44,509 nucleotides of DNA from a phage: the sequence record PZ049723.1. One strand, 5' to 3'. Shown in pieces: positions 7,454 to 27,433 of this stretch. Every line of letters starts with the position of its first letter. Within the stretch, counting starts at the first letter, position 1. The notes beneath the pieces are model-generated. The model ran no database searches and had not been told where the DNA came from. It worked only from the letters and a program-made list of their open reading frames with translations. The position numbers and the translations under genes were made by a program.

Positions 7454-10096
7454 TCATCGTTTGTAAAGTACACCACCCGGTTTCGTTGCCTTCACGATCT
7501 CGGCCTTGACCGCCTCGGTGATTTGCTTACCGAACGCCTGCGCTGTGCGTGGGTCTGGGCCGCTCACACTGGTGTCTGTTTTACCGGCCCCCGTGTAAAC
7601 GTTAGTCGTCACGACCATACCACCGCCTGCCCCCGACGCGGCAACGCCAAGTTTCCCGTCCGGCCCGCGCTTCAGTGGCATGATGGCCTCGGGTCCCGCC
7701 TCACCCATCAATCCTGCGCCCTTAGCGAACGCCTGGACGCCATAACTGAAAAAGGTAGGCTGGCTTACCACTTTCCCCGAATAGGCCGCCAGATTGCCTC
7801 CTGCGTACGCTCCGCCGTCCGCATTCTTAGTGAGGCCCGAGAAGATAGCGCCGAACAATCCGTTTTTGCCGCCGTCACCACCGAAAGCGCTAACAATCGA
7901 CTTGAACGCCTGCGAGGTAGCCAGCTTGATTAACTCGCTCAGGATGGACTTAACCATATCCTTTGCGTTCAGCTTGCCAGTCTCGAAAAACTCGTTCATC
8001 GTGTCCTGCATAGCGCCGAACGTGAATTTTGTGAGTGACGTCATCTGCGTGTAGCCGTTACCCATTTCATCCACGCTATCCTTAAGCCCACGGCTGAATC
8101 CATCCCATAGTGAGGCGTTAGCACCGGTCTGTGCTTCCTGCACTTCGCGCAGTTTAGACACCGCCAGATCAATATCGGTATCACTAGCGCCCACCCGCTT
8201 AAGGCGGTCAATTAGCTGCAATTCTTCGCGCAGGTTAGCCGCTTCGCGAGTGGAAAGCGCATAGCCCGCCGCGGTGGCTTTTAGCTCGGCGTTCTGGTTC
8301 TTAACGAAGGCGTCGATCTGCGCGTGCGCCTTGACCTGCTTCTCTTTCGCGTCCAGCAATTTGGCTTCTTCGACGATCTGCTCGCGGACTTCCTTCACGC
8401 GCCCGAACTCGACTAATTGCTGCTTCTCTGCTGCCGTTAGTGCTCTTTCTTTGCTCGCAGCGATTAACTGCTCGTTGTCGGCAATCAGCTTGTTAAGGGC
8501 CGCTTGCGCGCGTTGCGTTCGGGTCTGCGTCGATGCGTTGGCTTCGATCTGCTTTCCAGACTCACGAAGCTGGGCTAATTCGCTTCGCGCGACTTCCAGC
8601 ATTTTCAGCCCTGCATCGACTCGAACAGCGGCGGCCTTCTTCGGGGCGGGGTCTTTGTAACGCTCGTTTACCTGCTTCACCGCCTCGGCAAGCTCTTTCT
8701 CGTCAATCACGCCGCGCTTATTCAGCAAATTGAGGCGGGCGATCTCGTCGGCTCGCCGCTTCGCGTTGGTTGCGTACTCCTTCTCGAACGCGGCGCGGTC
8801 GCGGGCGGTGCGGTTGGCCTCTTCGTTCGCCTTTGCTGCTTCGTCCGCGGCACTTGCGTTGTCCCGTTCGGCACGGTTGCGCAGGGTGAGCGACGCCACT
8901 ACTTTTTCCTGGGCGACCAGTTCGCTGTAAAGCATGTTAATACGCGCTTTCTGCGCTTCGGTCATCACCCCACCGGCAGCGTTTACCGCTTTCATCTCGG
9001 CATAGTAAGCCGTGGTCAGTCGCTGCAATGATTCACGCGCTTTCATCTCTGACTCATTCGAGGACTGCGCGCGTCCAACATCCAGGATGGCATCCCACAT
9101 AGATTTCGCTGCCGATGTGACGATGTTCATCGACCGCTCGAGCGTTCCCATGTTGGACTTAATATCGTTGGTCATGGTGGTGAACGACGCCGCGGCTGTT
9201 TTATTAGCCAGCGCCACCGCTTCAGTCTCACGACCCATATCCACCAGGGATTGTACCTGCTGGATCTGCGCTTCGTTTACGACGTGATACTTATCAGCCA
9301 ATGCTCGCAAGCCGCCTACCGGGTCTGTAGACAGCTTCGCCACCGCCGCGACCACATCCTCGATCGGCTGGCTGGACACCTTCGCGAAGTCATTCACTAC
9401 CTTAGCCAGCGTGCCGAAGTCTGCACCCGCTTTCACACCAGCCGCCGCCAGCGCCTGGATTGTGTCACGCGTCTTGCGGAATGACCCGCCCATGCGCTCG
9501 GCGTTCTCTGATAGCACCAGGATCTGGTTTGCCGTTAGGCCGGAAATGTTACCTGACAGCGCCAGCGTCTTGTTAAGCGCTGCGACCTGGTTCTCTGCGC
9601 GGGACGTAATTGCCACCCCTACGCCTAACGTTGCCGTTAGTGCTGCGATGCCGATCCCTACCGGACCGAGGACGCCCGCAACATAACGCAGCGTGTTTCC
9701 CAGTCCGCCAAACGCCCCAGTAAGCTGCGGTAGCTGCTGAAGCATAACGCGGTGGACCGGCATACCCATCTCAAGCGTTACCGCAATATCCTGTAACTGG
9801 AATGCGGCGTTACGCGAGGCAAAGCCCAGGTTTTTGGTCGACATGCCTAACCTGTTGGCGAGTCGCTCCTGTTTCGTCATACCGTCGGCGGCGCGCTGCG
9901 ATTCGTTCGCCAGCTTTTCCATTCCGCCCGCGGCATCACTCGTCACCTTTTTGGATTTGCCGAGGGTGTCGTTTAATTTCTTAACCTTGTTTTCTGTGTT
10001 CTCGGATTTCTGTGCGAAGGAGTCCAGCACAGTATTCGCCGTTCTGATTTGTGCAACATCAGCCTTTAGCGTGATGCCTGCTGCCTGATCTGCCAT
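7454..10096 (-). CDS. Tail tape measure protein
   Basis: 880 aa, Ala/Gln/Glu-rich coiled-coil-like sequence with Gly-rich hydrophobic segments; lies between G/G-T chaperone and minor tail genes; ATG at 10096 with AGGGGA RBS. Confidence 0.85.
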   Translation of the reverse strand: MADQAAGITLKADVAQIRTANTVLDSFAQKSENTENKVKKLNDTLGKSKKVTSDAAGGMEKLANESQRAADGMTKQERLANRLGMSTKNLGFASRNAAFQLQDIAVTLEMGMPVHRVMLQQLPQLTGAFGGLGNTLRYVAGVLGPVGIGIAALTATLGVGVAITSRAENQVAALNKTLALSGNISGLTANQILVLSENAERMGGSFRKTRDTIQALAAAGVKAGADFGTLAKVVNDFAKVSSQPIEDVVAAVAKLSTDPVGGLRALADKYHVVNEAQIQQVQSLVDMGRETEAVALANKTAAASFTTMTNDIKSNMGTLERSMNIVTSAAKSMWDAILDVGRAQSSNESEMKARESLQRLTTAYYAEMKAVNAAGGVMTEAQKARINMLYSELVAQEKVVASLTLRNRAERDNASAADEAAKANEEANRTARDRAAFEKEYATNAKRRADEIARLNLLNKRGVIDEKELAEAVKQVNERYKDPAPKKAAAVRVDAGLKMLEVARSELAQLRESGKQIEANASTQTRTQRAQAALNKLIADNEQLIAASKERALTAAEKQQLVEFGRVKEVREQIVEEAKLLDAKEKQVKAHAQIDAFVKNQNAELKATAAGYALSTREAANLREELQLIDRLKRVGASDTDIDLAVSKLREVQEAQTGANASLWDGFSRGLKDSVDEMGNGYTQMTSLTKFTFGAMQDTMNEFFETGKLNAKDMVKSILSELIKLATSQAFKSIVSAFGGDGGKNGLFGAIFSGLTKNADGGAYAGGNLAAYSGKVVSQPTFFSYGVQAFAKGAGLMGEAGPEAIMPLKRGPDGKLGVAASGAGGGMVVTTNVYTGAGKTDTSVSGPDPRTAQAFGKQITEAVKAEIVKATKPGGVLYKR

Positions 10097-10159
10097 TATG
10101 CAGTCCCCTTTTTTATGCAGTTGCCGATTGACATTGTATCAGCGAATTTAAAACAAACC

Positions 10160-10480
10160 TTATTCAGTCTCAGACGAGGGGGGCCGCCGACCCCCGTCTA
10201 GTCTGAAAGACTGGTGGTTGTCCCGCCTGTCCCGATCGGCTAAAAACCGCGGCAGCACTGGCGGGGACGGGGTGCTGTCCCGCTTTGTCCCGTCCCTTAT
10301 TTGTCCCGCTTTTTGTCCCGCTTAGTTTATGCAATAAAACTGCATAGGTATGCATATTTGCGGGGTGGGACAAAGCGGGACGTCCCGTCTGTCCCGCTTT
10401 TAGTTTATGCAATAAAAGTAAATAGGTATGCGGTTTTTGAGGGGCGGGACAAAACGGGATGTACCGCTTGTCCCGCTTCA
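10160..10480. repeat. Composite non-coding element, copy A (stem-loop + GTCCCGC arrays + TATGCA palindromes)
   Basis: 10160-10214 is a 55-nt GC-rich stem-loop identical except 2 nt to 27166-27220; 10269-10345 matches 27275-27351; about 12 GTCCCGC/GCGGGAC heptamers including palindrome CGGGACGTCCCG; TTAGTTTATGCAATAAAA box present twice. Confidence 0.7.
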
Positions 10481-11157
10481 TTATGCGGGGTTTTGTTGCG
10501 CCATTTCATCAAGCGCGATTCGCTCCATTAGCTTGATATCTTTAAACGCGCGCTGCTCGTTTTCGATACCGTGCATCTTAAATAACCACTCCAACACGCC
10601 GTAGTCGATGCCGTATGCGCCACCAAATCCGGTGCGCCATTGCGTGGAGCAATCTGTGAAGACTGCGACTACCTTCGCGTTGTCGGGCCATAGCGCAACA
10701 GGCGGACAAACATCTTCGGGGGCCGCACCCCATAAACTTGCTGCTAAATCTTCGGAGGGTGGCGGCGGGCCATAAAAGCGTCGCGCCGCCTCAATTAGTT
10801 TTTTTCACGCAACCCCATCAGTTCGAGATAGTACGACGTGTGGAACACACCGAACGCGCGTGGATAGTTGACCACCAGGCGGCGGACGTTCTCCGCGTTA
10901 AATTCGTCCGGCAGATTCCAGCCTTCAGCGACGTGCATGATGGCCTCGACCATAACGTTAAAGCCGTCCGGGTCATTGTCGTCATATTCCGACAGCTTGC
11001 GTTCGGTGTCCTGCATGGTCTGCGAAAATTCGTCGATAGGGCGGTGGCGGACGGTAAACGTCATCTTGCCCGGTTCGTTCTCGCCAGGGCGCGGGATCTC
11101 AATCGGCAGCTTAAAGGTTGGTTTAGGGTCAAGTGTGAAGAGTGGTGCTTTAGCCAT
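10481..11157 (-). CDS. Tail assembly chaperone G-T fusion made by programmed -1 frameshift
   Basis: Canonical slippery heptamer A_AAA_AAC at 10798-10804 (minus strand); the -1 frame stays open for about 105 codons to TAA at 10481; architecture matches the conserved G/G-T pair upstream of tape measure. Confidence 0.55.
10795..11157 (-). CDS. Tail assembly chaperone (lambda G-like)
   Basis: ATG at 11157 with GGAGAA RBS (track ORF begins at TTG 11172); 120 aa; ends GAA AAA AAC TAA, placing a slippery heptamer directly before the stop. Confidence 0.65.
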   Translation of the reverse strand: MAKAPLFTLDPKPTFKLPIEIPRPGENEPGKMTFTVRHRPIDEFSQTMQDTERKLSEYDDNDPDGFNVMVEAIMHVAEGWNLPDEFNAENVRRLVVNYPRAFGVFHTSYYLELMGLREKN

Positions 11158-11172
11158 TGTAGTATTCTCCAA

Positions 11173-11196
11173 TAAAAAAGGGGCCGTGCTGGCCCC
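11173..11196 (-). terminator. Terminator/attenuator hairpin after major tail protein gene
   Basis: ggggcc-gtgct-ggcccc stem followed on minus strand by TTTTTTATT; sits between major tail gene end (11227) and chaperone start. Confidence 0.55.
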
Positions 11197-11226: not shown

Positions 11227-11952
11227 TCAAGACAACGCCTCGACCAGGTCCTTACGGTAGATAACCATATCAGACTGCATGGTCAGAGTAGACTGTACCG
11301 TTTCCACGTTGTTTACTTCAGCGGAAGGAATCTTCTGGAAAGATACCTTTGCCGGGTAAATACGGATCTCACCTTTGCCGCTTGCCGCTGCGGGGTTAGT
11401 GAACTTAATCACAGTGGTTTTCTGTGTGTCGTCCAGGTCTTCCAGGATTGGGCGGATCGGGTCTTCTTCGTCGTGGGTGAAAGTGTAAGTCTGTACCAAC
11501 GGGTTTTTCGTGGTGTTCAGACTGATTGCGGTGTTCACCTGCAACGGCTGGAAGGTAGTCGTCTGCTGGTCGCCACCAGACACGGCAACGTTAGTAATGA
11601 AAGGGAAGTCGATAAAGCCCGACACCTTCACCACTTCGCCCGGAGTGCCTACGCTGAAAGCGCCGGTCGGGTATTTTGTGACGTCTTCGGTGTCGAAGCG
11701 CGCCAGCGTAACGTCGTTGGTGTCCACTTTACCCACGATGAATGCACGGTTAAGCGCTCGGACCCACGGGGTTTTAGTGAACATAACAACGTCGCCAACA
11801 ACCAGACCATGCGAAGCCGCACAGGTAATTACGCAACCTTGCGTAAGGTCGGAGATCGACGCCGCGGCGTTGGTAGCTGCCGTAACAGCGATGCCGCTAC
11901 CCAGTACGGACCCAATCTGGACGCTGGACCCGTTAGGAAGTTGATAACCCAT
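11227..11952 (-). CDS. Major tail protein
   Basis: 241 aa; ATG at 11952 with AGGAG RBS; position upstream of chaperone and tape measure; followed by an attenuator-like terminator. Confidence 0.7.
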   Translation of the reverse strand: MGYQLPNGSSVQIGSVLGSGIAVTAATNAAASISDLTQGCVITCAASHGLVVGDVVMFTKTPWVRALNRAFIVGKVDTNDVTLARFDTEDVTKYPTGAFSVGTPGEVVKVSGFIDFPFITNVAVSGGDQQTTTFQPLQVNTAISLNTTKNPLVQTYTFTHDEEDPIRPILEDLDDTQKTTVIKFTNPAAASGKGEIRIYPAKVSFQKIPSAEVNNVETVQSTLTMQSDMVIYRKDLVEALS

Positions 11953-27165: not shown

Positions 27166-27351
27166 TTATTCAGTCTCAGACGAGGGGGGCCGTTGACCCC
27201 CGTCTAGTCTGAAAGACTGGGGTGCTGTCCCGCTGTCCCGCTCCTCGCCAGGCCGCGCCATCCGGGGCGGGACGGGGGTGCTGTCCCGCTTTGTCCCGCC
27301 CCTTGGCTGTCCCGCTTTTTGTCCCGCTTAGTTTATGCAATAAAACTGCAT
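27166..27351. repeat. Composite non-coding element, copy B
   Basis: 27166-27220 stem-loop identical to 10160-10214 except the loop (gccgTTga vs gccgCCga); 27275-27351 near-identical to 10269-10345; GTCCCGC arrays and TATGCA-N7-TGCATA palindrome. Confidence 0.7.
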
Positions 27352-27433
27352 AACTATTCACTATATTTACACTACACGGCAACCAATGCGACCAGCTAAA
27401 AACACTCGAAATGGCAACCAATGCGACCAGAAT

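Follow-up and report, generated by a model that had tools for sequence, protein, structure and literature searches.

A probable −1 frameshift connects the two halves of the tail assembly chaperone in a Dhillonvirus

In phage lambda, the tail chaperones gpG and gpGT are made at a ratio of ~30:1; the G part attaches both of them to the tape measure protein, the major tail protein is bound by T, and the virion contains neither (Levin et al. 1993; Xu et al. 2004, 2013, and 2014, as reviewed in PMC5009743). Here we describe a locus of similar layout in a phage genome (sequence record PZ049723.1), the whole 44,509-nt stretch of which was analyzed and is called the window below. The window is from a Dhillonvirus (HK578-like coliphage), with a 1.2-kb stretch ~94–95% identical to many members of the genus. 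In it, an open reading frame (ORF) that we call G runs through the heptamer A_AAA_AAC into its stop codon, and a second frame, T, continues from there in the −1 frame. The sequence evidence makes it very likely that G and T are expressed via a programmed −1 ribosomal frameshift and constitute the G/G-T tail assembly chaperone of the Dhillonvirus tail module.

The likeness to lambda lies in the arrangement. Both loci have the order tube, G, T, and tape measure, both have T in the −1 frame without a start of its own, and both have a heptamer near the 3′ end of G, from which a low-level shift, and thus a large excess of G over G-T, is expected. In lambda, five sense codons separate the heptamer, G_GGA_AAG, from the stop, whereas A_AAA_AAC in the window abuts the stop, and lambda T overlaps the start of H, whereas the window has a 384-nt spacer at the equivalent place. 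The protein families also differ, since the lambda proteins are strong matches to Phage_TAC_2 (PF06894) and Phage_tail_T (PF06223), whereas G and T of the window show no Pfam match to the lambda families at E ≤ 0.01 and reach only E = 4.4 (G) and E = 0.23 (T) in BLASTP.

Much closer are the T1-like Drexlerviridae, including Escherichia phage BrunoManser (bas12_0015/0016) and Pseudomonas phage Motto (gp14/15). As in the window, they carry Phage_TAC_4 and DUF1799 proteins, encoded between the gene for the major tail protein and that for the tape measure protein, with T in the −1 frame and the identical A_AAA_AAC abutting TAA. Their T is 35–39% identical to that of the window, their G is shorter (104 amino acids [aa]), the hairpin after the heptamer differs in sequence, and their T ends ~35–40 nt before the tape measure gene, compared with 384 nt in the window. 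Judged by these families, the window pair belongs with the T1-like “tape measure chaperones” and not with the lambda G/T sequence families.

Outside phage tails, the two heptamers that recur among relatives of this locus, A_AAA_AAC as well as G_GGA_AAC, are the same two low-efficiency heptamers that serve transposase systems, where they yield a small amount of fusion protein from two overlapping ORFs, although the proteins are unrelated. The proven A_AAA_AAC transposase case, which we take to be the IS1 insA-insB′ cluster, has no established stimulator. Escherichia coli dnaX (A_AAA_AAG) resembles the window, where both shift and hairpin are predicted, in a −1 shift on an A-rich heptamer, a single tRNA-Lys, and a hairpin a few nucleotides downstream (PMC5009743). 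It differs in its highly efficient AAG A-site codon, where the window has AAC with a tRNA-Asn that is near-cognate after the shift, in an upstream Shine-Dalgarno-like element, of which the window has no conserved counterpart, and in its outcome, because the new frame of dnaX terminates at once whereas the shift in the window would extend the protein.

All genes of the G/T region are on the minus strand, and coordinates are those of the window (Table 1). G is preceded by GGAG 9 nt 5′ of its ATG, and its last codons are CGT (10809–10807), GAA (10806–10804), AAA (10803–10801), and AAC (10800–10798), followed directly by TAA. Thus, the ending GAA AAA AAC TAA with the heptamer against the stop, as given by the initial annotation, is borne out by the minus-strand reading, and so is the −1 frame open for ~105 codons to 10481, the coordinates 10481–11157 being exact. 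The −1 frame reads AAA AAA CTA ATT GAG after an upstream TGA, which is not kept in all relatives (SECphi18 has CGA at that site), and translates after the shift point as LIEAARR...QQNPA. The predicted G-T fusion joins 11157..10798 to 10798..10481, with C10798 read twice, and has 225 aa.

Table 1. Features of the G/T locus and its surroundings in the window
Feature	Position	Strand	Details
Tape measure gene	7454..10096	−	880 aa; Pfam TMP_2 E = 2.9e-43, Tape_meas_lam_C E = 7.6e-14, phrog_24 E = 2.2e-181
Non-coding spacer	10097..10480	−	384 nt, between T and tape measure gene; GCGGGAC repeats, long GC hairpin ~10213–10163, TGnTACAAT 10141–10133
T extension	10481..10798	−	105 sense codons (CTA 10798–10796 ... 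GCA) and TAA 10483–10481; translation, phrog_680
DUF1799 domain (PF08809) in T	10502..10732	−	76 bits (gathering cut-off 26); E = 2.8e-21; profile 1–80/80
Predicted hairpin, candidate stimulator	10761..10790	−	arms GGCGGCG 10790–10784 and CGCCGCC 10767–10761, 16-nt loop; consensus fold
G zero-frame stop TAA	10795..10797	−	abuts heptamer; possible “shifty stop” contribution
G ORF, tail assembly chaperone	10795..11157	−	120 aa and TAA, ATG at 11157; zero-frame product; translation, Pfam, PHROG
Slippery heptamer A_AAA_AAC	10798..10804	−	correct zero-frame phase; within 7-A run 10805..10799
−1-frame TGA	10805..10807	−	upstream limit for a productive −1 shift in the window phage
Terminator-like GC hairpin and T-run (GGGGCCAGCACGGCCCC TTTTTTATT)	11180..11196	−	between tail tube gene and G; consensus scan
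Tail tube (major tail) gene	11227..11952	−	directly 5′ of G; Pfam Phage_tail_3 E = 7.5e-32, phrog_584 major tail protein E = 6.6e-74

The overlap between the −1 and zero frames is only 10 nt, which leaves room for a single in-phase heptamer position, and this position is occupied by A_AAA_AAC; the +1 frame at the locus is closed. As the chance rate, any heptamer of the form XXXYYYZ occurs at 0.0024 per position in the window, and AAAAAAC occurs three times in the 89 kb of its two strands. An open −1 frame behind a stop is by itself no rarity in so compact a genome (genome-wide, 42 of the 211 open stretches, mostly the next gene) and does not discriminate, because downstream genes often sit in the −1 frame. 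We therefore place the weight on homology, the missing start codon, and conservation rather than on ORF length.

Both halves belong to known families. G matches Pfam Phage_TAC_4 (PF08748) with 83.9 bits (gathering cut-off 21.1; E = 1.4e-23), residues 1–120 aligning to positions 1–124 of the 124-position profile, and it also matches phrog_569 (E = 9.8e-41). The T extension matches phrog_680 (E = 9e-31), and its DUF1799 domain, with a conserved TQWR..G..G.DY core, spans residues 25–101 of a 107-aa −1-frame query that begins two codons ahead of the extension. PHROG 17368 is a single profile of 213 positions whose first half matches the G part and whose second half matches the T part. The description of T as a Pro/Ala-rich extension is right for its first ~40 residues (38% Ala and Pro), whereas the other 65 contain 12% of these residues and hold the conserved DUF1799 domain. 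If the proposed expression is correct, DUF1799 acquires a function in this lineage, as the T domain of a G-T chaperone.

Two same-strand ORFs between the tube and tape measure genes are the gene order of the G/G-T class, and the window has it. According to Pfam and PHROG, the region upstream of G encodes tail tube, tail terminator, tail completion, and head-tail connector proteins as well as the major head protein, and the region downstream of T encodes the tape measure protein and then minor tail proteins, neighbors that fit a complete siphovirus tail module. The support that the initial annotation saw here for a tail module is therefore sound, the tube and tape measure matches flank G-T, and the assignment of the window to a tail module is confirmed. 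Of the arrangement it described upstream of the tape measure gene, the order holds, but T does not directly adjoin that gene, the spacer lying between them. A PDB sequence search found no relevant relatives, and a single-sequence AlphaFold model was unusable, with a predicted local distance difference test score (pLDDT) of 40.7.

Conservation was followed in a set of 56 sequences, the window and 55 other loci, drawn from Dhillonvirus, T1-like Drexlerviridae, Xp10, phages of Ralstonia, Pectobacterium, and Klebsiella, and IMG/VR metagenomic viral contigs, with T identity ranging from 100% to ~30%; the weak partial match L056 was left out. The initial annotation had counted a lack of −1-frame conservation in related phages as part of what would refute it; T lies in the −1 frame relative to G in 56/56. 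A_AAA_AAC abuts the stop in 34/56 and G_GGA_AAC in 19/56, while three carry an A_AAG tetramer at the stop or one codon before it. A stop codon, TAA or TGA, stands directly after AAC in 53/56, whereas SEA-PHAGES sites have on average 26 nt in between (PMC10885494). The T proteins, aligned with distant relatives, are conserved from the first post-shift codon (L-x-x-A-...), and W54, R55, G60, D65, and E92 are invariant, with a W-R...G....D core further on.

Across the Phage_TAC_4/DUF1799 family (L004, L005, L027–L055, L008, and L010), G almost always ends in Asn (AAC), followed by TAA or TGA. With such a stop directly behind AAC, T always opens with CTA or CTG, both encoding Leu. The identity of the stop codon differs even among close relatives while the heptamer stays constant.

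Selection was assessed in 20 distinct Dhillonvirus haplotypes, with codon differences counted against the window. Variable sites in T fall at −1-frame codon positions 1, 2, and 3 in the numbers 23, 9, and 71, and synonymous to non-synonymous differences stand at 304:65 in the −1 frame, compared with 39:326 and 27:347 in the other frames, a pattern of strong purifying selection on T in the −1 frame only. The heptamer A_AAA_AAC is invariant in these 20 sequences. Furthermore, although 68% of third positions in the G-T unit vary, one run of eight codons is invariant at its third positions, the next longest run being three (P ~0.013 by shuffling), and this run spans precisely 10806..10784, from the slip site through the stop and the 7-nt spacer to the 5′ hairpin arm.

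T has no evident way of being translated on its own. As in the G/G-T class, the second ORF overlaps the end of G in the −1 frame (open from 10804) and lacks a usable start, the first 33 −1-frame codons of the window containing neither ATG nor GTG nor TTG. By our own reading of the sequence, the first such codon is near T residue 69, deep inside DUF1799, so that a product from an internal start would miss most of the domain. Together, the data point to T as a selected coding sequence reachable only from G.

The extension could be reached without a ribosomal shift if RNA polymerase added one A at the 7-A run (10805–10799), within which the heptamer lies, since a one-A insertion gives the same frame as a −1 shift; the junction would then read ...REKK-LIEA.... 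Efficient slippage by bacterial RNA polymerase is not known on runs shorter than ~9 A/T, and the run has 7 A in the window and 6 A in the T1-like relatives. In E. coli genes, AAAAAAA runs are rarer than expected in every frame, for which slippage indels or a high indel mutation rate have been offered as possible reasons (PMC4066793). Against slippage, however, the 19/56 relatives with G_GGA_AAC have no homopolymer run and yet keep the same frame, position, and adjacent stop; what is conserved is thus a heptamer for tRNA re-pairing and not a run. We consider it very unlikely that G-T is made mainly by transcriptional slippage. T might also be made separately, with no fusion at all, by termination-reinitiation or a non-canonical start at the CTA/ATT overlapping the TAA, or from an internal GTG, TTG, or ATG. 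Gene callers have indeed put small independent ORFs into the T region of GenBank records, some Dhillonviruses have a GTG at −1-frame codon 31, and P0005, a 59% identical relative, begins with Met six residues past the junction. These candidate starts are nevertheless not conserved between relatives, the called ORFs vary by record, and in the window the usual start codons are missing where they would be needed, internal ones removing most of DUF1799. Furthermore, conservation of T begins at the first post-shift codon, and two canonical heptamers are kept at the same spot in distant lineages, which reinitiation would not need, so that separate synthesis appears highly improbable.

Among 1.84 billion representative proteins, searched exhaustively and without a profile, 1148 relatives were found; of the 150 best of these, 149 match one half alone, either G or T. 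We also observe one representative, P0010 (L058 173–793; ENA ERZ27336856 NODE_101157, 811 nt at 2.6x coverage), that is a single ORF of 206 aa with both Phage_TAC_4 and DUF1799. It lacks the ~9 final codons of G, with the slip site among them, which places G and T in frame; it may be a deletion variant of natural origin, making G-T alone, or else an assembly artifact, and we give it no weight. A homolog search with the G-T fusion as query returned two G-only proteins and is uninformative on fusions annotated elsewhere. P0010 is what could be cited for the idea that a mutation or sequencing error split one ancestral chaperone gene and left T as a silent, non-functional relic. That idea is almost certainly wrong, as the same split recurs in the 56 sequences, whose source isolates and metagenomes are independent, purifying selection acts strongly on T in the −1 frame, and the short, low-coverage contig of P0010, devoid of the slip site, stands against a search in which nearly all of the best representatives match one half.

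The sequence anatomy, the family membership, the missing start, the conservation of frame and slip motif, and the selection in the −1 frame are observed here, and the model that we favor, a programmed −1 frameshift, is built on them. Most ribosomes would translate G and terminate at TAA, and a minority would slip back one nucleotide on A_AAA_AAC. In a tandem slip, peptidyl-tRNA-Lys would move from AAA to AAA and tRNA-Asn from AAC to AAA, with CTA read next, giving the junction ...LREKN-LIEAARR...; alternatively, a single P-site tRNA may slip with the stop codon poised in the A site. The shifted ribosomes would read CTA ATT GAG and onward for 105 codons, yielding G-T with DUF1799 at its C terminus. 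By analogy with lambda, the tape measure protein would be coated by G and by the G portion of G-T, and recruitment of the tail tube protein would fall to the T domain. A low-efficiency heptamer would fix a high G:G-T ratio, and neither protein would be expected in the virion. That the family uses two heptamers of low efficiency in E. coli is consistent with a requirement for G-T in a small, fixed proportion. For those who study frameshifting, the family may be of interest because it consistently uses these two weak heptamers and places them against the stop.

The structure-stimulated class (IS911, IS3, and dnaX type) is defined by a stable, selected hairpin or pseudoknot 5–9 nt 3′ of the heptamer. 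In the window, a hairpin with a 7-bp GC outer helix begins 7 nt 3′ of the heptamer (minimum free energy −17.1 kcal/mol), and among the 20 Dhillonviruses its arms are invariant, all local substitutions falling in the loop. In the T1-like relatives, the same heptamer is followed at 6 nt by another, significant hairpin (z = −4.0). We regard the window hairpin as a plausible, if unproven, candidate stimulator. An upstream Shine-Dalgarno-like stimulator was considered and rejected, the sole G-rich element being a Gly codon that varies between GGG, GGA, and GGC in the 20 Dhillonviruses. The one feature common to nearly the whole Phage_TAC_4/DUF1799 family is the stop directly after the heptamer. Weiss et al. 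are said to have described in 1987 such “shifty stops,” in which a stop after a slip site may itself promote slippage. It is conceivable, though we hold it only tentatively and would not bet on it, that the stop codon is an integral part of the frameshift signal throughout the family, in a termination-coupled manner. The P-site tRNA-Asn would then move from A_AAC to AAA in the wait for a release factor to bind, and the G:G-T ratio would be set by release-factor activity in the infected cell and not by downstream RNA structure.

Several points weigh against a programmed frameshift at this locus. The heptamer A_AAA_AAC shifts poorly in E. coli (PMC4066793, PMC5009743). The window hairpin is no more stable than dinucleotide shuffles (z = −0.7) or than synonymous recodings of the Ala-Ala...Pro-Pro-Pro peptide it encodes (p = 0.19), and the lineages with G_GGA_AAC show no consistent structure downstream. 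The 56 sequences amount to perhaps eight independent lineages rather than 56. The roles given to G and T are borrowed from lambda, to whose proteins they have no detectable sequence similarity. The occurrence of the shift, and likewise its efficiency, the parts played by stop and hairpin, and the protein-protein interactions, we infer from the sequence. Finally, none of the four Dhillonvirus GenBank records inspected (L001, L002, L003, and L006, that is, MK373789, NC_073071, PV841870, and OQ291023) contains a joined G-T coding sequence (CDS).

How these records treat the locus varies. In the T region, an ORF of 38 aa is called in PTXU06, one of 31 aa, labeled “DUF1799,” in SECphi18, and one of 76 aa in Kenya-K19, from a GTG that is absent in the window, while none is called in Pandora71. 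Certain labels taken from PHROGs give G and T as “tail length tape measure protein,” and G of SECphi18 is labeled “major tail protein.” The T1-like records, of which L004 and L005 were also inspected, have two separate CDS and no joined one. On our reading, the four Dhillonvirus and two T1-like records mis-annotate the locus, with T either left out or broken up into small ORFs, labeled “hypothetical” or “DUF1799,” that do not agree with one another, and the joined CDS (11157..10798, 10798..10481) is the supported one. We found no paper that links Dhillonvirus or HK578 to a tail chaperone frameshift in the literature searched, which leaves out most subscription journals. The judgment of the initial annotation that the site is expected rather than novel seems right to us, as it is a well-known phage feature that is merely unannotated in the genus records inspected.

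The G-T unit is flanked by non-coding elements on both sides. Upstream, the terminator-like hairpin between the tube gene and G folds at −14.7 kcal/mol (z = −1.7), and the record of phage PTXU06 marks a terminator at this site. Its probable role is that of an attenuator, lowering expression of the chaperone relative to the abundant tube protein.

Downstream, the spacer that precedes the tape measure gene is less usual than the frameshift site itself. It is judged non-coding because of indels and shifting open frames among 18 Dhillonviruses. Its 3′ ~190 nt (~10346–10160) is a paralog, roughly 85–90% identical by eye, of an element at ~27172–27355 on the same strand, which is intergenic and just 3′ of the primase-helicase gene. 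Both copies have a palindromic head, TATGCA-N7-TGCATA, followed by AACTAA, and the two clusters hold 15 of the 24 GCGGGAC(A) repeats in the window. Both end in a long GC hairpin of −27 to −28 kcal/mol (z = −2.8 and −4.3) with an invariant stem and a variable loop. An Rfam search at a permissive E-value assigned no family, the matches being chance ones to miRNAs and leaders, below gathering scores and all in the spacer. The repeated element may be a terminator/operator/promoter cassette, an iteron array, or a small RNA gene.

At its 3′ end, T reads ...CAA AAC CCC GCA TAA TG, which contains a formal A_AAC_CCC heptamer (10484–10490, minus strand) and a TAATG stop/start overlap. A second frameshift here, into a 103-codon open −1 frame (10481–10170), was considered and rejected. 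The ORF has no family match, the region has indels of 1–22 nt, its longest open frame changes among the 18 Dhillonviruses, and part of it is the duplicated non-coding element. We judge the run of this ORF into the spacer to be due to chance.

Within the spacer, TGATACAAT, an extended −10-like motif (TGnTACAAT) at 10133–10141 on the minus strand, lies ~37 nt 5′ of the tape measure ATG and is invariant among the 18 Dhillonviruses, while its flanks vary. Taken with the hairpin in front of it, this motif suggests that the tape measure gene may have a promoter of its own and not be co-transcribed with G and T.

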